A DNA stretch of 64,000 nt, from assembly GCA_002687175.1 (NCBI GenBank), contig NYZP01000001.1, forward strand, positions 839 through 64,838, written 5' to 3'. The notes under the pieces were generated by a model. It worked only from the letters and a program-made list of their open reading frames with translations. It ran no database searches and had not been told where the DNA came from. Below, piece by piece: positions 4,769-40,440 of the stretch. The DNA is from Parcubacteria group bacterium. GTDB taxonomy: Bacteria; Patescibacteriota; Patescibacteriia; Buchananbacterales; UBA6539. Made by a program: the position numbers and the translations under genes. Numbering within the stretch: position 1 is the stretch's first letter; the number at the start of each line of letters is the position of its first letter.

Positions 4769-5638
4769 ATGGAAAACATTTCCTTGCCATCAAAAATTGA
4801 AATTGAAGACACTAAAGAAAAAAATAAGTCTATTATAACAATACAGCCATGTCACCCCGGCTATGGCACTACTCTGGGTAATGCCTTACGTCGAGTATTA
4901 CTTTCTTCTTTACCTGGCGGAGCAGTAATTGCTTTTAAAATTGAAGGAGCCAGTCATGAATTTTCCGGTATTGATAACGTTAAAGAGGATCTGGTGGAAA
5001 TTTCGTTAAATTTAAAACAACTTGGGTTAAATATTTTCACCGATGAACCAGTAAAATTAGAATTAAAAGCAAAAGGTGAAAAAAAAGTTACAGCCAAAGA
5101 TATTAAAACTACCAGTGATGTAGAGGTTATTAATAGCGATCTAGTGATTGCTACTTTAACCAGTAAAACTGCTGAGCTAAACATGGAAATTTTAGTTACT
5201 AAGGGCCGGGGATATGTCCCCTCAGAATCTAGGGAAAAAGAAGATTTGGAAGTGGGGATGATCGTAATCGACTCAATTTTTACCCCAATTAAAAACGTTG
5301 GTTTTCAAATTGAAAATGTCCGAGTGGGAAAAATGACCAACTACGAAAATCTAATTATAACTATTGAGACTGATGGTACTATTACTCCCAAGGAAGCTTT
5401 GAATCAATCAGTAAAAATTTTATTAGATCATTTTAATCAAATTGCTGTTGAGACTAAAGATGGTGCTAAGCCAAAAAAAGTTAAAAAGGAAAATACCAAA
5501 AAAACTGAAGAAGAACCAGAAGAAAAAACTGAAGCCAAAGAAAAAGAAGTCAAAAAAGCTAAAAAGGCTGACAAGGCCCTAGAAGAAGATAAAGAAGACA
5601 CTGAAGAAACTAAAGAAGAAAAACCTAAAAAAGCTTAA
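4769..5638 (+). CDS. rpoA: DNA-directed RNA polymerase alpha subunit, NTD only with K/E-rich low-complexity tail (no alpha-CTD)
   Basis: The alpha NTD is conserved (GYGTTLGNALRRVLLSSLPGGAVIAFKIEGASHEF...). The last ~55 aa are KKVKKENTKKTEEEPEEKTEAKEKEVKK...EEKPKKA, with no helix-hairpin-helix CTD. Confidence 0.85.
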   Translation: MENISLPSKIEIEDTKEKNKSIITIQPCHPGYGTTLGNALRRVLLSSLPGGAVIAFKIEGASHEFSGIDNVKEDLVEISLNLKQLGLNIFTDEPVKLELKAKGEKKVTAKDIKTTSDVEVINSDLVIATLTSKTAELNMEILVTKGRGYVPSESREKEDLEVGMIVIDSIFTPIKNVGFQIENVRVGKMTNYENLIITIETDGTITPKEALNQSVKILLDHFNQIAVETKDGAKPKKVKKENTKKTEEEPEEKTEAKEKEVKKAKKADKALEEDKEDTEETKEEKPKKA

Positions 5639-7046: not shown

Positions 7047-7592
7047 ATGAAAGAAAACAATGAAATTGCAATTTTCGGTGGGGGATGCTTTTGGTGTACC
7101 GAAGCCACTTTTAGCCAACTAAAAGGTGTCAACAAAGTTACTCCTGGTTTTGCTGGTGGAACTGGTGATGTTAACTACGAAAAAATTCACAGCGATAACA
7201 CTGGGCACGCTGAAATGATTGAGGTAACTTTTGACCCAGAGATCATTTCATATGATGATTTACTGTCCGTCTTTTTCACAATTCATGACCCAACCACAAT
7301 TAATAAACAAGGGGCTGATGTTGGTACTGAATATCGGTCAATGATTTTATACACCTCTGATGATCAAAAAACTAAAGCTGAAGCAATGATAAAAAAATTA
7401 AATGATGACAACAAAACGTATGATATGCCAATTGTTACTGAAATAAAACCACTAGACAAGTTTATTAAAGCTGAAGACTACCACCATAATTACTACGAAA
7501 ATAATAAAGATCAACCTTATTGTCAGATTGTGATTAATCCAAAATTAGAAAAACTAAAAGAAAAACACGCTGAGCTTTTGAAAATTTCTTAA
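7047..7592 (+). CDS. msrA: peptide methionine sulfoxide reductase MsrA
   Basis: Catalytic GCFWC motif (IAIFGGGCFWCTEATF) and MsrA fold-length protein of 181 aa. Confidence 0.9.
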   Translation: MKENNEIAIFGGGCFWCTEATFSQLKGVNKVTPGFAGGTGDVNYEKIHSDNTGHAEMIEVTFDPEIISYDDLLSVFFTIHDPTTINKQGADVGTEYRSMILYTSDDQKTKAEAMIKKLNDDNKTYDMPIVTEIKPLDKFIKAEDYHHNYYENNKDQPYCQIVINPKLEKLKEKHAELLKIS

Positions 7593-19170: not shown

Positions 19171-19962
19171 ATGGCATCAAAAAATAAAATTTCAATTGTA
19201 ATTGTTTCTTGGAAAGTTAAAGATTTGTTAAATAAATGTTTGACCTCTATCTTTACATATCAACAAAATCTAGATTTAGAAGTGATTGTGATCGATAACA
19301 ATTCAAATGATGGTACAGTCGACATGGTTAAAAATAATTTTCCCAAAGTATTGTTAATTAAAAACAAAAAAAATATTGGCTTTGCTAAAGCCAACAATCT
19401 AGGGATTGCCAAGGCCAATGGAAATTATATTTTAGTTTTAAATCCTGACACAGAAATTTTAAAAAATACCATTCAAGAAATGGTCAGCTTTATGGATAAA
19501 AATCCTCAGGCTGGTATTGTTGGTCCAAAACATTTAAACCCAGATAAAACAATCCAACCTTCAGTCAGACGATTCCCCAGTTTACTGGCTGTCTTTCTAA
19601 TACTTATTAAACTGCCTAAAGTCTTAAACTTAAAATCAGTGAATAAATTTTTGGCAACCGACGTCGACTATAATAATACTCAACCAGTTGATCAGGTCGC
19701 TGGCTCATTTATGTTTATTCGTCAAGAAGTATTAGCTAAAATTGGTAATTTTGATGAAAAATTTTTCATCTGGTTCGAAGATGTTGACCTGTGTAAAAGA
19801 GCTAAAAGTGCTGACTGGCAAATTTGGTATAACAATAAATCGCAAATTATTCATTATGGGGGACAAAGTTTTAAACAAAGATTAACTGTTAAAAAACAAC
19901 TACTTTTCTTTAAAAGTGCCTGGTACTATTTCAAAAAACACGGATTTATCTATAAAAATTGA
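19171..19962 (+). CDS. glycosyltransferase family 2
   Basis: ISIVIVSW...VIVIDNNSNDGT, DxD-like (NPDTE) and the FEDVDLCKR motif typical of GT2 rhamnosyl- and galactosyltransferases. Confidence 0.8.
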   Translation: MASKNKISIVIVSWKVKDLLNKCLTSIFTYQQNLDLEVIVIDNNSNDGTVDMVKNNFPKVLLIKNKKNIGFAKANNLGIAKANGNYILVLNPDTEILKNTIQEMVSFMDKNPQAGIVGPKHLNPDKTIQPSVRRFPSLLAVFLILIKLPKVLNLKSVNKFLATDVDYNNTQPVDQVAGSFMFIRQEVLAKIGNFDEKFFIWFEDVDLCKRAKSADWQIWYNNKSQIIHYGGQSFKQRLTVKKQLLFFKSAWYYFKKHGFIYKN

Positions 19963-20275
19963 TTTTTATAGCGATAAAGGTTACAATATAAATATCACTG
20001 TTAATCTGAACCAAAGCAAGGAGACCCTCCTATGAGAAATAGAATCTTCAACCTAAAGAAAGGACGGTGATTATCTCTTCTTACAGCTCTGCTGTGAGTC
20101 GTACCTTGTTGTTTAACTGATCTTTCCAACTTCAGTCACTATGACTGTTTGGCACAACAATAAGCATACTCACGAAGGGAGGGAGGGGAACAAGTGTCGA
20201 AAACATCGGAAGTTGAAACACCTCTAGTTGTAGTATAAATTGTGGAACAGACGACCAATGGAGGATACTCAAGCT

Positions 20276-20701
20276 ATGCGTAAGACATTGATGTTTATGT
20301 GTACCTGCGCCGTAGCGCTTGCATTCGTTGCCCTGACGGCTGAGGCAGAGATTATATCTGTCACGAACAAAACCGCTATCGGCGTAACCACAGCGCAGGA
20401 CGCATCGAACCCAGCCCTGACGGCAACCTCGTATTGCAAGACTACGGGAACGATGATTGCAGCTATGCAGACGCAGAGTCCAGCTTCGGACATAGATCTC
20501 TTGCAGCTCGACACGGTCGAGAATACCACGGCAGAACCTCGCGACGCGGTCCAAGAACAGGAGGTCAGTGGCTTCGCCGCGAACATGAGACCGGCGATGG
20601 CGGACAGCTTCTTGCATTCGGCGATGATGATGGCCGAGAACTTGACGGCGAATCCCGCGAACACGGTAAATGAGGTGAGTGGCTTCGCCGCGAACATATG
20701 A
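20276..20701 (+). CDS. small secreted Thr/Ala-rich protein in GC-rich island (141 aa, signal peptide)
   Basis: GGAGGA SD 10 nt upstream. MRKTLMFMCTCAVALAFVALTAEA|E is a signal peptide. About 57% GC against about 33% for the flanks. Contains an internal EVSGFAANM/I repeat. In frame within the track ORF at 20240. Confidence 0.45.
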   Translation: MRKTLMFMCTCAVALAFVALTAEAEIISVTNKTAIGVTTAQDASNPALTATSYCKTTGTMIAAMQTQSPASDIDLLQLDTVENTTAEPRDAVQEQEVSGFAANMRPAMADSFLHSAMMMAENLTANPANTVNEVSGFAANI

Positions 20702-20710
20702 GACCGGCGA
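20564..20710 (+). repeat. two copies of a ~34-bp direct repeat (gt[c/g]agtggcttcgccgcgaacat(at)gagaccggcga) 77 bp apart
   Basis: Read directly: copy 1 at 20564-20597, copy 2 at 20675-20710. The second copy spans the stop codon of the island ORF. Confidence 0.7.
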
Positions 20711-21093
20711 CTATCACTGCCGCCAATCACTTCGCGCTGAACTGGGTGTTCAGCCGTAATGGTAGCGCTTCTCGCGCACTTTCTTCGGCTCCAGTGGCTC
20801 TGTTTCCTGGTTGATGCGTGAATCGTATCACACGAGTCTCTGACTAGCCTAAGTAACATTACAATTTACCCCTTACGCAGACGTTGACCTCACGGTTCGA
20901 CCTGCGTCCTACATTCCCCCAGACTTCAATAACAGGACAGCTTAGCAGCAGCCCAAGTTAAAGATTTCTGAGGGGTCTTTTTTTTATGATTGACTTTTTG
21001 TAAAATAAATGATAGTTTCAAGCTTAGAAACTAAATGATCTTTAACTTTTCATCTTGATTGACATCTCACCGTCAGTGGAGGGAGAATTTTCA

Positions 21094-21348
21094 ATGATAA
21101 GCTTAATAAACATACAATGTCCTCATTGTAATGTGCAAAAAGCAATCCTGATACCGCCAATAGGTTCAATTCTCATTGGATTATGTAAAGATTGTAATGA
21201 CTCTATTGCTATCTTCGAGGGTCAAGCATTAGCACTAGACACACAAATCATACGAACTGCTGATATCGAAAATCGCAAAAAACATCTGTTAGAAATTTTG
21301 GACAGATTCCTCAAAGAAAGAATTTTCGCATTGATGCCAGATGAATAA
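21094..21348 (+). CDS. small zinc-ribbon protein (84 aa)
   Basis: SD GGAGGGAG lies 8 nt before the ATG. MISLINIQCPHCNVQKAILIPPIGSILIGLCKDCNDSIAIF... has CPHC...CKDC. The track ORF at 21055 is an upstream extension. Confidence 0.5.
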   Translation: MISLINIQCPHCNVQKAILIPPIGSILIGLCKDCNDSIAIFEGQALALDTQIIRTADIENRKKHLLEILDRFLKERIFALMPDE

Positions 21349-21422: not shown

Positions 21423-22856
21423 ATGAACATCAATTTATTCGGCAAATTGTTTAAAGGGGTAATTGCAACTTTAATTTTAACAGAGCTTTTTTCATTAGTC
21501 AGCTACCAAATACCACCACTAAATCAGGTGGCTTTTTTTGTTGTTTTGATTGTAGTACTGTTTTTATCATTACGAAAGTTAGAATACGGGCTTTATATTT
21601 TATTGGCTGAAATTTTTGTCGGGGGACTAGGACATCTATTTTCTTTTGATATTTTTGGGGTCTCCTTGTCAATTCGTCTAGGATTATTTTTAGTAATCAT
21701 CGGCGCTTGGCTTATTAAAATAATTAAGAAAAAAGAAAAATTCCAAATTCAAAATTCCAAATTCAAAATTCCAAATTTATTTTTAGCTATAGCTATTTTA
21801 ATTGGGGCAATTAACGGTTTATATAATAATGAATTAATTAACGTCTTCCTAGATTTTAATGCTTGGATCTACTTTTTATTAATTCCAGTTTTTCTAACGG
21901 TAATCAAAGGTCAAAAAATTATTGAAAATATTTTACAAATTTTAATTGGCGCTACAACTTATTTATCACTTAAAACTTTAATTGTCTTGTTTTTATTTTC
22001 CCATAACATTGCCGGCATCGGCGGATTTTTTTATAAGTGGATTCGTGATACCGGAGTCGGGGAGATTACTTTTGTTTCAGGAACTATTTTTCGAGTATTC
22101 TTCCAATCACAGATCTACGCCTTGATGGGATTTTTTATTGTCTTAGTGATTGTGGCCTACAATTTTAGGCTTAAAGAATGGAAAAAGTATGTTGTTCCAG
22201 TTTTATATCTTTATCTAACGTCATTAACTATTATTATTAGTCAATCAAGAAGTTATTGGGTTGGGGGACTGTTTGGCCTAATTAGTTTAATCATTTTTGG
22301 CTGGTGGAAATTTAATTTTAAACTCAAAAAAATTGTTGTTTTACTTTTAATGTCATTAATGTTTTTGGCTGATCAAATACTATTGATTAATTTTATAACT
22401 AACAACTTTTCGGGAAACTTAGTTGCTGACAGATTCAAAGGTTTACAAACAGAAGCGGCCGGAGTTAGTCGGCTTAATCAACTTGGTCCACTAAGTCAAG
22501 CCATATCCAGACAACCACTCTTTGGTTATGGCTTTGGTAAAGAACTAACTTACAAAAGTCTTGACCCCAGAATTTTGAATAATAATCCAGATGGCACTTA
22601 TACCACCTATGCTTTTGAGTGGGGCTACTTAGATATTTGGCTAAAGATTGGCTTACTGGGTTTATCTGCGTATAGCTTATTAATTGGTCTATTATTTTAT
22701 TTAGGATTAAAAAAAACCAGTTCAATCACTGGACTTAAAATTGGTTTGCTAACCGCCTTAACTGCTTTACTGGTAACTAATATTTTTTCTCCCTATCTTA
22801 ATCATCCTCTGGGAATTAGCTACATAATGCTTTTACTGGCAACGTTACGAGATTAA
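21423..22856 (+). CDS. O-antigen ligase/polymerase-like polytopic membrane protein
   Basis: 477 aa, at least 10 TM helices, a periplasmic loop with FGYGFG...YAFEWGY. Sits within the glycan gene context. Confidence 0.5.
   Translation: MNINLFGKLFKGVIATLILTELFSLVSYQIPPLNQVAFFVVLIVVLFLSLRKLEYGLYILLAEIFVGGLGHLFSFDIFGVSLSIRLGLFLVIIGAWLIKIIKKKEKFQIQNSKFKIPNLFLAIAILIGAINGLYNNELINVFLDFNAWIYFLLIPVFLTVIKGQKIIENILQILIGATTYLSLKTLIVLFLFSHNIAGIGGFFYKWIRDTGVGEITFVSGTIFRVFFQSQIYALMGFFIVLVIVAYNFRLKEWKKYVVPVLYLYLTSLTIIISQSRSYWVGGLFGLISLIIFGWWKFNFKLKKIVVLLLMSLMFLADQILLINFITNNFSGNLVADRFKGLQTEAAGVSRLNQLGPLSQAISRQPLFGYGFGKELTYKSLDPRILNNNPDGTYTTYAFEWGYLDIWLKIGLLGLSAYSLLIGLLFYLGLKKTSSITGLKIGLLTALTALLVTNIFSPYLNHPLGISYIMLLLATLRD
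21741..21778 (+). repeat. 14-bp tandem repeat (ttccaaattcaaaa x ~2.7) inside the ligase-like CDS
   Basis: Read directly. It encodes KFQIQNSKFKIPNL. The unit length is not a multiple of 3. Confidence 0.7.
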
Positions 22857-24430: not shown

Positions 24431-24601
24431 ATGGATAGCGTATTGATTGACAGCGGGTGGGATCTATTTTTGTTGTTTGCTATTTCATGGGTTGCAACAT
24501 TTCTGCTGGCTTTTGTAGTTATGGCAACCACTCATTTTTTCTTTGGCCCTTGGTTGAGAAGGCTACTGTTCAGAACTACTATCCAAGTAGCACTAAGCTA
24601 A
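24431..24601 (+). CDS. small hydrophobic peptide 1 (56 aa, 1 TM)
   Basis: SD AAGGAG lies 8 nt before the ATG. MDSVLIDSGWDLFLLFAISWVATFLLAFVVMATTHFFFGPWLRRLLFRTTIQVALS. Its stop overlaps the next SD (TAAGGAG). Confidence 0.55.
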   Translation: MDSVLIDSGWDLFLLFAISWVATFLLAFVVMATTHFFFGPWLRRLLFRTTIQVALS

Positions 24602-24611
24602 GGAGAATACA

Positions 24612-24701
24612 ATGGATATGTATTGGTGGGTTGTCATCCTTGGAATGGCTGGATTTATATTCCTTGGTGGTCTTTGGGAAAAATTCAAAAACCGCAAGTA
24701 G
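24612..24701 (+). CDS. small hydrophobic peptide 2 (29 aa, 1 TM)
   Basis: SD AAGGAG lies 6 nt before the ATG. MDMYWWVVILGMAGFIFLGGLWEKFKNRK. Confidence 0.5.
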   Translation: MDMYWWVVILGMAGFIFLGGLWEKFKNRK

Positions 24702-24712
24702 AAAGGATAATC

Positions 24713-24811
24713 ATGAAGTCGCTAGGTGAGATAATCGCCGTAGTATTAGCGGTTGGGTTTGTTACGTTATACGAATTTTTTCTAGCAATTAGGAAAATGA
24801 CAAACACGTAA
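24713..24811 (+). CDS. small hydrophobic peptide 3 (32 aa, 1 TM)
   Basis: GAAAGGA lies 5 nt before the ATG. MKSLGEIIAVVLAVGFVTLYEFFLAIRKMTNT. Confidence 0.45.
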   Translation: MKSLGEIIAVVLAVGFVTLYEFFLAIRKMTNT

Positions 24812-24832
24812 GACCATAGAAGGAGGTGGGTG

Positions 24833-25003
24833 ATGACTTTGTTAGAGTGGGGAATACTGATATTGGCCGCAATGTTTATCTGCAATATTGTGGCTACTGG
24901 CATGTTCGGTCGAATAACTGGTGTAAAAAGTGCTGCTGTTCTACTTTCGGTGGGAGCAATTTATTGCTTAATCTGCCTAGCCAGGGGTGATGAAGAAATA
25001 TAG
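24833..25003 (+). CDS. small hydrophobic peptide 4 (56 aa, 2 TM)
   Basis: SD GAAGGAGGTG precedes the start. MTLLEWGILILAAMFICNIVATGMFGRITGVKSAAVLLSVGAIYCLICLARGDEEI. Confidence 0.55.
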   Translation: MTLLEWGILILAAMFICNIVATGMFGRITGVKSAAVLLSVGAIYCLICLARGDEEI

Positions 25004-25017
25004 AAAGGAGGTGAATA

Positions 25018-25197
25018 ATGCCTTGGTACGGATGGGTGGTAATTGTTTGGTTTTCCATAAACACATGGTTAGCCGTAGATCAAGTAAGGAGTGATAGATT
25101 TAGTCTAAAAGAAACACCAATGGTGTTTTTGTTTGGCATACTGACTGTGGTTTGGTTCGTCATTGATTATATGGTTGAGCAAAGTAGGCGGATGTAA
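25018..25197 (+). CDS. small hydrophobic Trp-rich peptide 5 (59 aa, 2 TM)
   Basis: SD AAAGGAGGTG lies 4-6 nt before the ATG. MPWYGWVVIVWFSINTWLAVDQVRSDRFSLKETPMVFLFGILTVVWFVIDYMVEQSRRM. Confidence 0.55.
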   Translation: MPWYGWVVIVWFSINTWLAVDQVRSDRFSLKETPMVFLFGILTVVWFVIDYMVEQSRRM

Positions 25198-38520: not shown

Positions 38521-39044
38521 TGACAATTATTAAATAGTGTGGTTAACCTACGATCATGCAAATGTGGTTAGTGAATACCGCCGAACAGGTATATACTACC
38601 ACATCAACCGCTCTACGGAGCACAAGGAGGACACAGCGCGAAGAAGAAGAGCACGGCGTCCGGTGCGACGACGAACATGGCCTTCTCCGGCGGGTAACGA
38701 CCCAGCCGGCGGCGCGGGGAGACGTTGCGGAAGAGCAACACAAAAATGGCAGTAAAGAGCGCTGGTGCACCAGCGCCGAAGACGAACGGCACCGGTTTTT
38801 TTCTACCGGAGCCACACAGGTAACACCTAGCTCGCGACGCGTTTCGGTCAAGTTGCTCCCACCCTCCGACCGTCGATCCGCTCAACGATTCGAAATTCGA
38901 CAGGTCGCTGGTTCCAGGGAAGATTACGAGCGCTCCTCCTGATTTCACGTAGGATTCGATGGCCGAAATGGATTCTTCGGCGTAGGAGTCGATATCCAAA
39001 GCGAGGACTACTGGATACGGAATCAGTTGGTCGGTGGGGCGGAT
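38521..39044. other. GC-rich (~58% GC) non-core island between ddl and alr; probable degraded foreign insert
   Basis: TTGACAAT at its left end and GGTCGGTGGGGCGGATTTATTTTTT at its right end. No ATG-initiated ORF with an SD. The track ORFs here start at TTG and have skewed R/A/P/G-rich composition. Confidence 0.4.
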
Positions 39045-40160
39045 TTATTTTTTATACACCCTTTCAAGCTCTGAATTTATTCTGGTTACTACTTCGTAAT
39101 TAATTGTTCTAAGTTTATCTGCCATTTCATCGGCAGTATTTTTTTTACCTACTAACTCAACTTCATCCCCTGCTTTAATACTTTTTATTTTAGAAACATC
39201 AATCATGGTTAAGTTCATGCATACACGTCCAATCACCGGACATTTCTTATTTTTAACAATAACCTCACCATTATTAGATAAATGCCGATCATACCCTTCC
39301 CAGTAACCAACTGCTATAACTGCCATTTTTAACCTTCTGGGGGCAGTGTAAGAGCAACCATAACCTACTTTAGTGCCTTTACTTATTATTTTAACTTGTA
39401 AAACTTTAGTCTTCCAGGTTAGTGCTGGTTCTAAACTTAACCAAGGATAATGTTTTAAAGCAATCTTCTCGGCTTGTTCTGAAGGCCATAATCCGTAAAG
39501 TGATAAACCCAACCTAATTAAATTAAAATGTGCTTGCGGTTCAACTAAACTGGCAGCGCTACATCCAAAATGCACTATTGGTATTTTTATTTTGTCATTC
39601 TGAACTTGTTTCAGAATCTGATTAAAGACTTTTAGTTGATATTTAGTATACCCTACATTTTCCTCAGAAGCGGCAAAGTGACTATAAATTCCTTCAATTT
39701 TTATATTTGGTAACTTATCAACTTGTTTAATAAACTCTACGGCATCTTTTACCAGAATGCCCACGCGAGTTGTGCCAGTGTCAATCTTAATATGCACTTT
39801 GGCAGTTTTTTTTAACTTCTTAGCAGTGCCTGATATTAATTTAGCATAACTTAAACTGTAAATTGGTAAATCAATATTTTGCTTAATTCCCTCTTTTAAA
39901 TAGCGACTTTGGGCATAACTCAAAACAAATATTCTTTTTTTAACATTGTGTTTTCTAAGTTCTAATGCTTCTCCTAAACTAACCACTCCTAGCCACTTTA
40001 CCTTGGGTAAAATCAGCTTTGTTACCTCAATCATGCCGTGTCCATAGGCGTTACTTTTGACGATAGGCATGACTTCAACGCCTTTACCAACAATTTTTTG
40101 GTATTGTTTTAGATTATATAAAATAGCAGATTTTGATATTTCAACCCAAGAATTGTACAT
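39045..40160 (-). CDS. alr: alanine racemase
   Basis: PLP-lysine motif VKSNAYGHG. C-terminal beta-domain with a conserved Y (GYWEGYDR). Confidence 0.9.
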   Translation of the reverse strand: MYNSWVEISKSAILYNLKQYQKIVGKGVEVMPIVKSNAYGHGMIEVTKLILPKVKWLGVVSLGEALELRKHNVKKRIFVLSYAQSRYLKEGIKQNIDLPIYSLSYAKLISGTAKKLKKTAKVHIKIDTGTTRVGILVKDAVEFIKQVDKLPNIKIEGIYSHFAASEENVGYTKYQLKVFNQILKQVQNDKIKIPIVHFGCSAASLVEPQAHFNLIRLGLSLYGLWPSEQAEKIALKHYPWLSLEPALTWKTKVLQVKIISKGTKVGYGCSYTAPRRLKMAVIAVGYWEGYDRHLSNNGEVIVKNKKCPVIGRVCMNLTMIDVSKIKSIKAGDEVELVGKKNTADEMADKLRTINYEVVTRINSELERVYKK

Positions 40161-40287: not shown

Positions 40288-40440
40288 ATGTCGCGTAAAG
40301 AACTGCAGGACGCAGCAACTAAGTTGCTGAGGGAAGACGGATCCCGGTGGGATGGCAGAAAAAAATCTGCCGTAAAATCCGGTCAGACCAGCTTCGAAAT
40401 GCGAATGCAAGTCGAAGCGGTTGGCGCTGGTAAACACTAG
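40288..40440 (+). CDS. small hydrophilic protein (50 aa) in GC-rich cassette
   Basis: SD AAGGAGGTG lies 6 nt before the ATG. MSRKELQDAATKLLREDGSRWDGRKKSAVKSGQTSFEMRMQVEAVGAGKH. About 53% GC. Not in the ORF track (under 60 aa). Confidence 0.45.
   Translation: MSRKELQDAATKLLREDGSRWDGRKKSAVKSGQTSFEMRMQVEAVGAGKH

Follow-up and report, generated by a model that had tools for sequence, protein, structure and literature searches.

Does the GC-rich island that interrupts an otherwise AT-rich locus of a Parcubacteria group bacterium represent foreign DNA, or does it belong to the genome that carries it? The island lies near position 20,000 of the window, by which we mean the whole stretch of 64,000 nucleotides analysed here (contig NYZP01000001.1), whose mean GC content is about 0.35. 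In 200-nt windows, the GC content is 0.27-0.33 up to 20099, 0.43-0.47 at 20000-20399 and 0.55-0.59 at 20300-20799, and it is 0.32 again by 21000. These values bear out the sharp rise in GC and the composition anomalous for the genome that were reported in a preliminary description of the locus. The same description proposed a horizontal acquisition, possibly from a GC-rich host. The results given below point elsewhere: the island is probably a lineage-conserved module for a hypervariable secreted protein, with a composition that is intrinsic to the gene and is not that of fresh foreign DNA.

The core of the island is an open reading frame (ORF) at 20276-20701 of the forward strand. It begins with ATG, codes for a 141-aa pre-protein and has a GC content of 55.6%, with 68% GC at third codon positions (GC3). 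The Shine-Dalgarno (SD) sequence GGAGGA is located at 20260-20265 of the same strand, 10 nt before the ATG. The product is deposited in GenBank as the hypothetical protein MAF13288.1 of a marine Parcubacteria metagenome-assembled genome. The analysis of 3-base periodicity revealed a significant signal in six 180-nt windows over 20250-20729 (0 of 300 shuffles reached the observed value), and its phase was constant and equal to the frame of the forward-strand ORF. No periodicity was detected in windows starting at 20670 or later, or in the first 240 nt of the island. In the ORF frame, purines make up 0.73 of the first codon positions and G makes up 0.11 of the second ones; the GC3 of 0.68 contrasts with 0.26-0.29 in the neighbouring genes. 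The RNA of the ORF folds no better than its dinucleotide shuffles (z=+0.5). The core of the island is thus protein-coding, because the periodicity is confined to the ORF and the ORF RNA carries no excess structure.

By inspection, the N-terminus of the protein, MRKTLMFMCTCAVALAFVALTAEA, contains a basic n-region, a 19-residue hydrophobic core and an A-x-A motif. It can be divided into MRK, TLMFMCTCAVALAFVALTA and A-E-A, and these parts make up a 24-aa signal peptide with the features of the Sec/signal peptidase I (SPase I) type. The whole protein contains 18% Ala, 13% Thr, 7% Met and 6% Asn, and the mature part is rich in the same four residues. The ATG ORF with its GGAGGA sequence, the signal peptide and the Thr/Ala-rich mature part had all been described before and were confirmed here, with coding periodicity confined to the ORF; the data support a true gene, translated from an SD, whose Thr/Ala-rich product is secreted. 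Other assignments were tried and rejected. A lipoprotein was discarded, as Cys 9 and Cys 11 are preceded by FM and CT and there is no lipobox ([LVI][ASTVI][GAS]C). The class III leader of type IV pilins and pseudopilins (G then F/M-T-L-x-E) is absent from the window protein and from its counterparts in four relatives. Two ORFs of 161 and 196 aa overlap the gene on the opposite strand. The longer one, taken for a gene in some pipelines, starts outside the periodic region and has no SD, and the relatives keep the forward frame.

The evidence for conservation comes from related loci, which were obtained by fetching homologues of the flanking GT2 glycosyltransferase together with their surroundings. 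In the window, the island sits in an envelope-glycan cluster with the order Wzx, GT4, GT2, RluB, GT2, island, zinc-ribbon gene, Wzy_C. The slot that it fills is bounded on the left by the second GT2 gene (19171-19962, forward strand; Pfam match 4e-25). On the right, it is bounded by a gene for a membrane protein of the Wzy_C (O-antigen ligase/O-oligosaccharyltransferase) superfamily (21423-22856, forward strand; PF04932, 2e-11), which takes the same position in all relatives. Distant relatives have the Wzy_C gene right behind the GT2 gene or fused to it. In relatives with the extended order GT4, GT2, NUDIX, RluB, GT2, slot, Wzy_C and then fmt/def, the slot is occupied. An ORF is present in 4 of the 7 slot-bearing relatives (L034, L037, L040 and L042), whose GT2 is about 60-62% identical to that of the window. 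These four ORFs of 145-172 aa code for proteins with a signal peptide, 15-21% Ala and 12-19% Thr. The signal peptides start with MKRCT..., MKPTY... or MRLRRS... and end with ASA, AYA, ASG or LPA, and the SDs (GGAGG, AAGGAG or GAGG) are placed 5-9 nt before the ATG. The order of leader, ORF, structured 3' untranslated region (UTR) and Wzy_C is common to all four, with a zinc-ribbon gene in between only in L037.

The compositional anomaly is shared as well. The relatives' ORFs have a GC content of 0.59-0.60 and GC3 of 0.70-0.77 in loci with a GC content of 0.40-0.42. In each of the five slot ORFs, Thr is most often encoded by ACG (47-62% of its codons versus 7-25% in neighbouring genes), and GCG for Ala is also raised. 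Since this codon bias is common to all positional counterparts whatever the GC content of the host, it belongs to the gene itself and is no trace of a recent import. It is not due to RNA structure either, because the ORFs of all five lineages fold at z of about 0 (z=-0.6 to +1.1 in the four relatives). The high GC content has two sources, the Ala/Thr/Pro/Gly-rich composition acting on the first and second codon positions and a gene-specific taste for G/C-ending codons, especially those of the NCG type (ACG, GCG).

The database searches returned almost nothing. The 141-aa protein matched only itself among 5.8e9 proteins, and only itself and a junk repeat protein among 1.84e9 cluster representatives; it had no match in Pfam, NCBIfam, PHROG or PDB. 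No tblastn or blastn match for the island gene was found in plasmid or phage collections, and no relative on viral contigs. Among the slot proteins themselves, BLASTP aligned the window protein with that of L042 colinearly over 123 residues at E=0.03. The L042 and L037 proteins were colinear at E=2e-5, and those of L034 and L037 matched at E=0.002 in the N-terminus only. A common origin of the slot modules is therefore well supported by architecture and not proven by sequence, and the homology of the mature region and of the leader with those of the relatives is not statistically established. The module is probably ancestral to this Parcubacteria (Buchananbacteria-like) clade, with a slot protein evolving so fast that only position, size, signal peptide, composition and codon style persist.

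The region upstream of the gene has an organization of its own, all of it on the forward strand. A sigma-70-like promoter (TTGATT, 17 nt, TACAAT) is located at 19959-19987 and begins inside the GT2 stop codon region; TTGACT or TTGACA promoters are found at the equivalent place in relatives. The 5' leader of the island transcript (19992-20275) shows features ordered as in the leader or RNA element of about 200-300 nt in the relatives. It contains a small hairpin, AGGAG-ACC-CTCCT (20019-20031), in which a T>G single-nucleotide polymorphism (SNP) of the population falls at 20028 and whose 5' arm is the AAGGAG SD of a short upstream ORF (uORF). This uORF, MRNRIFNLKKGR, extends from its ATG at 20032 to 20070, and its TGA stop lies inside a box, GAAAGGACGGTGAT (20058-20071). 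The canonical 3' tail of bacterial 16S rRNA is GGAUCACCUCCUUUC, with GAAAGGNGGTGATCC as its reverse complement, and the box is a degenerate copy of the latter with a 1-nt insertion. A second purine-rich box, GGGAGGGAGGGG, at 20177-20188 is the counterpart of GAAAGGAGG(G/T)GAA in relatives. The first of the two micro-ORFs noted previously is thus present as described. In the case of the second, the purine box stands and is matched in relatives; its GTG is at 20194 and not at 20195, and is not consistently matched.

The comparison of lineages showed that all 8 examined have an SD-like motif and, after it, a uORF of 5-31 codons that begins with ATG. The uORF comes shortly after the first hairpin in seven of them; in L040, the SD-preceded uORF that was found begins after the first box. 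In five lineages, the uORF ends with a TGA that lies within the box; one lineage has the stop just ahead of the box and two have it 12-27 nt beyond. The sequence of the uORF peptide is not conserved. In the relatives, the box matches 11-16 positions of the 17-mer, mostly 13-16, with 16/17 in L042. The pattern GA[AG]AG[GC]N1-2GGN0-1TGAT was found exactly once in each of seven slot-bearing loci, always on the forward strand and inside the slot, and nowhere else in 232 kb, at an expectation of 0.055 per 64 kb. Local alignment of the leader gave z=2.8 (p ~0.005) with the element of L008 and z=1.8 with that of L009. The ordered motifs and the single occurrence of the box support the relatedness of the leaders. 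The recurrence of the SD-like motif and ATG uORF in all lineages makes a translated leader plausible, so that leader-peptide-style regulation, as suggested in the preliminary description, is plausible in outline. In the RNAalifold prediction, the GGTGATC half of the box pairs with a segment of the uORF that lies upstream of it. A single scan of metagenome DNA with the leader box CCAGRGAAAGGCGGTGATCC gave chance matches only, in GC-rich contigs. No match to Rfam 15 was found for the window at gathering score (chance-level matches only at E<=10), and none to Rfam for the leader elements of the relatives.

The leader box can be compared with regulatory extended SD elements. Internal SD sequences before a UGA are known from the prfB frameshift site, and rpsU has a strong SD in the SD-poor Bacteroidia. 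Like such elements, the leader box is a long complement of the 16S 3' tail in a special mRNA of a mostly SD-less genome, and it abuts or contains the UGA stop of a short ORF in most lineages. Unlike them, it has no directly following start and no slippery site, reaches up to 16/17 nt and, in three relatives, is carried by a stand-alone RNA with its own terminator.

The transcript appears to end in a GC-rich, structured 3' UTR (20702-20985, forward strand), in which a long hairpin at 20916-20977 followed by T8 at 20978-20985 reads as an intrinsic terminator. The GC-rich 3' hairpins listed earlier are real, as the segment 20700-20990 is more structured than its shuffles (z=-2.8; 1 of 200 shuffles reached the observed value), and the 3' UTRs of the four relatives are structured too (z=-3.5 to -6.3). 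The remaining three slot-bearing relatives have no ORF in the slot and retain the leader RNA alone, as a non-coding element that measures about 200-300 nt and has a promoter and an intrinsic terminator of its own (L008 6810-7135, L009 6820-7100, L041 4346-4590). This element holds two boxes complementary to the 16S 3' tail and has no Rfam match. The L008 and L009 copies are 80% identical, with compensatory changes in the first hairpin. We regard the stand-alone element as a candidate new small RNA.

The 3' end of the gene carries a direct repeat. Copy 1 (20561-20597, forward strand) encodes EVSGFAANMRPA, and copy 2 (20672-20710, forward strand) contains a 2-nt AT insertion that creates the stop and goes 9 nt beyond it. 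The alignment of 20561-20586 with 20672-20697 covers 26 nt with one mismatch, a C/G change; after the indel, 13 identical nt follow (20585-20597 versus 20698-20710). The repeat and its passage over the stop had been noticed before, at a length of 34 bp that we correct to 37/39 nt. The most suitable reading is a duplication within a gene prone to repeats, in which the 2-nt insertion in copy 2 now sets the stop; internal peptide repeats also occur in relatives, for example VPTN(T/A) three times in L040. The extension of the -1 frame past the stop (20698-20814) has no periodicity, a GC3 of 0.51 and none of the codon style of the family, and a longer product is therefore unlikely. A target of a diversity-generating retroelement was also rejected, since the copies differ by the C/G change and the 2-nt indel and there is no reverse transcriptase-like ORF near the island.

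Several other explanations of the island have to be weighed against a resident module. The abrupt change in GC could come from a chimeric assembly, in which a GC-rich fragment was joined into an AT-rich contig. Several short contigs indeed stop at 19972-20038, and one Logan contig corresponds to 20029-20948. However, the left junction, with GT2 joined to identical sequence, was found with at most one mismatch in three independent assemblies from different studies (a Tara scaffold, the SPAdes contig ERZ11848503 NODE_2450 and the JGI contig Ga0373649), and two of them, the Tara scaffold and ERZ11848503, cross the right junction as well. The sole difference in the JGI contig is the T>G at 20028 (1 base in 2.2 kb), and the left break of the Logan contig abuts this SNP. 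Misassembly, a check on which had been called for in the preliminary description, is excluded because the junctions are identical in independent assemblies; the relatives have the same architecture, and a chimera can be set aside with near certainty. The island might otherwise be a structured non-coding RNA, prominent by its GC, with the long ORFs on both strands (153, 161 and 196 aa) as by-products of GC richness. The want of a protein homologue, the significant structure of the 3' part and the conserved RNA element at the same place in relatives agree with this view, whereas the strong codon periodicity with exact ORF boundaries, the open forward frame with a signal peptide kept in relatives, the absence of an Rfam match and an ORF segment whose folding does not surpass that of shuffles, either in the window or in the four relatives, contradict it. 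For 20276-20701 this reading is disfavoured and highly improbable; a role of the leader and the 3' UTR as functional RNAs is possible. Decay of the gene into a pseudogene or truncated relic of the family in this lineage is suggested by the stop-making insertion, by the absence of the hydrophobic C-terminal end seen in relatives (...LVLVA, SLVV, LTVA, ISVI), by the unstructured leader with its degenerate boxes and by the lowest GC3 of the five ORFs. Against it stand the intact 141-codon frame, SD, ATG and signal peptide, the strong periodicity, the lack of periodicity and family codon style in the -1 frame after the stop, and a sequence that is invariant across samples apart from the one leader SNP. 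The insertion and the degenerate, unstructured leader leave some room for decay of the module, which we consider quite unlikely.

The remaining alternatives concern the origin of the island. A gene for a secreted effector or adhesin might have been transferred recently from a GC-rich donor such as a host. Such a transfer would account for a GC3 far above that of the neighbours and for the lack of homologues in both protein collections. It would also fit the missing ORF in L008, L009 and L041 and the more distant relatives in which GT2 runs directly into, or is fused to, Wzy_C. The comparison with the four relatives does not sustain this proposal: at about 60% GT2 identity, they hold a matching ORF, composition, codon style and similar leader at the same slot. 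Ameliorated composition and a missing SD pattern, the state of relatives considered in the preliminary description, was not seen; their islands are unameliorated and retain the SDs. There is no integrase, tRNA or flanking target duplication, the direct repeats there are not beyond chance, plasmid, phage and viral collections gave no match, and donor-like sequence was found nowhere. A recent import is thus very unlikely. The island resembles classical islands of horizontal transfer and integron cassettes in its sharp compositional jump, its orphan ORF and its single-gene size (~1 kb). It differs from them in having no integrase, tRNA, attC-like site or flanking duplication and in being present, with the same composition and at the same locus, in several distantly related genomes; as 4 of the 7 slot-bearing relatives have it and mobility signatures are absent, its classification as a horizontally acquired genomic island was rejected. 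An integron gene cassette was discarded too, since inspection showed no fit of the hairpin GCTGAAC-tgggt-GTTCAGC to the R''/R' consensus and no intI is present in the window, and so was a tRNA fragment, no tRNA having been found. More serious is the view that the slot is a hot spot at which members of a GC-rich, perhaps phage-borne, cassette pool are repeatedly exchanged via the conserved leader and the zinc-ribbon/Wzy_C flanks, in place of vertical descent. In its favour, the GC of the ORFs is uniform (0.56-0.60) while host GC varies from 0.35 to 0.42, and identity between the mature proteins is at noise level, compared with about 60% in the flanks. The slot of L040 contains an additional ORF for a secreted protein and repeated elements, and several assemblies have short contigs that end at the edges of the slot. 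On the other side, neither mobility genes nor att-like repeats were seen, viral contigs and PHROGs were empty apart from one weak match of L042, the L042 and L037 proteins still align colinearly, as expected for divergence in place, and one of the breaks at the left edge coincides with the simple SNP at 20028. Recurrent exchange is a live rival to a resident module, and we judge it unlikely.

On the assumption of a resident module, the following course of expression is proposed. The island would be a single transcription unit, giving an RNA of about 1 kb from the sigma-70-type promoter at the end of GT2. Its leader of about 280 nt would present an SD, a uORF with its UGA stop in the 16S-complementary box and then the second purine-rich, SD-like box. 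If the pairing predicted by RNAalifold holds, translation of the uORF could unmask the box, and the leader may recruit or retain ribosomes for the downstream ORF by ribosome capture or translational coupling. The Sec pathway would export the 141-aa pre-protein, and signal peptidase I would cleave it behind AEA to give a mature protein of about 117 aa that is rich in Ala and Thr and probably disordered. The transcript would end with the structured 3' UTR and the intrinsic terminator. That the slot encodes a secreted or surface protein conserved in position is, in our judgement, quite likely. We infer an abundant surface or secreted protein under diversifying selection, its export and its abundance both being predicted. 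An exposed surface component, possibly O-glycosylated, would agree with a Thr/Ala-rich product that passes through Sec, is probably disordered and diverges very rapidly. Hypervariable surface proteins in glycosylation or polysaccharide loci, such as pilins, flagellins and S-layer proteins, are alike in their fixed position, extremely fast divergence, low complexity, internal repeats and signal peptide. Unlike them, the present protein has a mature form of only about 117 aa, no recognisable fold or domain and a conserved gene-specific GC3/NCG bias.

As to its function, we put forward only tentatively that the protein may be a Thr/Ser O-glycosylation acceptor of the adjacent Wzy_C-family enzyme, which would use the lipid-linked glycan assembled by the neighbouring transferases. 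Genes for Wzy_C O-oligosaccharyltransferases often adjoin the genes of their target proteins in the same orientation, as in pilA-pilO and comP-pglL (PMC3643930). The adjacency typical of a PglL/TfpO-type system is found here, with the PF04932-domain gene next to the island and in the same position in relatives. As in pilA-pilO/tfpO of P. aeruginosa and comP-pglL of A. baylyi, a small gene for an exported protein precedes a Wzy_C gene in the same orientation within a glycan cluster, and the exported protein has Ser/Thr/Ala-rich flexible regions. The present locus differs from these pairs in having a Sec/SPase I signal peptide in place of a type IV pilin leader, an intervening zinc-ribbon gene, a Wzy_C protein without the PglL_A motif and a glycosylation that is a prediction. 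We know of no O-antigen or lipopolysaccharide role that would be expected for a Wzy_C protein in a Parcubacterium.

A number of results weigh against the module and the functions proposed for it. Against a profile built from the four relatives, the window protein reaches only 2.3 bits, a value matched by 7% of mature-part shuffles that keep the signal peptide; because this score is at the level of shuffles, common ancestry rests on synteny and shared style and not on sequence. The window leader was missed by nhmmer and by a covariance model built from the leaders of five relatives, a weak model that missed L040 and L041 as well. It is not significantly structured (z=+0.25), whereas three of the four relatives' leaders clearly are. 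The box pattern was drawn up after the window copy had been seen, and the in-frame stop in the box in 5 of 8 lineages is not significant against an expectation of one in three (binomial estimate, p ~0.09). AlphaFold2 run on the single sequence gave no confident fold (pLDDT 43). Sequons of the N-x-S/T type are not enriched beyond composition (3 observed versus 1.7 expected, P=0.23; P=0.26-0.65 in relatives), and an N-glycoprotein was rejected. The Wzy_C protein has no PglL_A or PglL_B motif, with Wzy_C as the only Pfam match at E<=0.1; since PilO is also devoid of these motifs (PMC3643930), their absence does not exclude O-oligosaccharyltransferase activity. Finally, the proposed module does not account for the GC3/NCG bias; stability of the mRNA in a background of AU cleavage, the use of otherwise idle tRNAs for a very abundant Thr/Ala-rich product and a shared cassette pool are ideas that may be considered.

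The small, conserved zinc-ribbon-like gene between the island and Wzy_C (21091-21348, forward strand) codes for a protein with Cys-x2-Cys motifs and has the SD GGAGGGAG. Homologous small genes (CxxC...CxxC) are found in L009 at about 7241-7450 and in L037 at 4959-5345, and no family could be assigned. The slot of L040 (4296-5700) also holds a 206-aa ORF with a signal peptide and a GC3 of 0.65, as well as a repeated sequence of about 40 nt that occurs twice, ATGTCATTGCGAGCGAACGAAGTGA(G/A)CGCGGCAATCTCACA; with this additional ORF and the repeats, the slot evidently tolerates extra insertions. Small GC-rich islands next to Wzy_C-type genes were also noted in other Patescibacteria loci, namely in L017 (8396-8792, 58% versus 46% GC), where a small LysM-type secreted protein is encoded, and in L014 (9251-9895, 59-63% versus 44% GC), with a 214-aa ORF. 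The window contains a second GC-rich island at 38540-39045 (0.53-0.63 GC), between ddl-like and alr-like genes, in which ORFs overlap on both strands. Codon periodicity is found there only at 38865-39059, and a 128-aa ORF on the reverse strand matches only itself (99% identity) among 5.8e9 proteins. No sequence is common to the studied island and these three. The contigs of Tara and ERZ11848503 (L003/L004) are 100% identical to the window over 20.8 kb and 14 kb (window 9171-29962), and the population is remarkably clonal across the Tara, ERZ11848503 and JGI contigs. Contigs L005-L007 of two assemblies (window 19171-20038) contain the GT2 gene alone, with ends about 25 nt before and 40-76 nt after it, which hints at strain-level heterogeneity on both sides of GT2.

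The use of SDs in the rest of the genome was determined from the 48 genes of the window, and an SD core was present within 20 nt of the start in only 6 of them. TATAAT-like hexamers stand directly upstream of many of the 48 starts, which suggests leaderless mRNAs or mRNAs with very short leaders. The view that SD usage in the island is foreign to the core genome holds only in part: SDs are in use here, and some native mini-ORFs have extended ones, among them TAGAAAGGAGGTGAATA placed directly before ATG (in a five-gene mini-ORF operon and at another small ORF). These extended SDs suggest that the 16S tail of the organism is the canonical one. The operon, at 24431-25197, comprises five very small ORFs for hydrophobic peptides of 29-59 aa, all of them preceded by strong or extended SDs; it has a marked G-over-C skew, and its ORFs are uncalled in the Tara annotation. 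Another ORF of 50 aa and 52% GC, at 40288-40440 in the intergenic region upstream of alr, has the extended SD GAGAAGGAGGTGCAC and a TTGACA/TATATT-like promoter. Small GC-rich genes driven by an SD seem to be a recurring class in this genome.

Taken jointly, these features would allow a further interpretation, which we consider unlikely: a clade-wide expression module dedicated to one hypervariable surface protein, combining an NCG-style gene of about 60% GC, a ribosome-capture leader, a trans-acting RNA and a Wzy_C acceptor. The gene would then be held at about 60% GC and in NCG style within genomes of 33-42% GC. The 14-17-nt complement of the 16S tail at the uORF stop, together with the second box, would serve for ribosome capture in an SD-poor system, and the RNA that persists alone in three lineages with its own terminator may act in trans on the anti-SD tail. 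If true, this would be the first Wzy_C-type O-oligosaccharyltransferase/acceptor system proposed for the Candidate Phyla Radiation.

The locus also calls for caution in composition-based calls of horizontal transfer in reduced, AT-rich genomes, since an orphan ORF in a region of sharply different composition is not necessarily foreign DNA. The leader, with its long complementarity to the 16S 3' tail, offers a handle on how the translation of selected mRNAs may be boosted in SD-poor organisms, and both the leader RNA and the gene-specific codon style are parts worth following up. For the Parcubacteria themselves, whose cell surface is poorly known and whose lifestyle probably depends on surface contacts, the island is indicative of a family of small secreted proteins that evolves fast, lacks annotation and has a constant location among the envelope-glycan genes.

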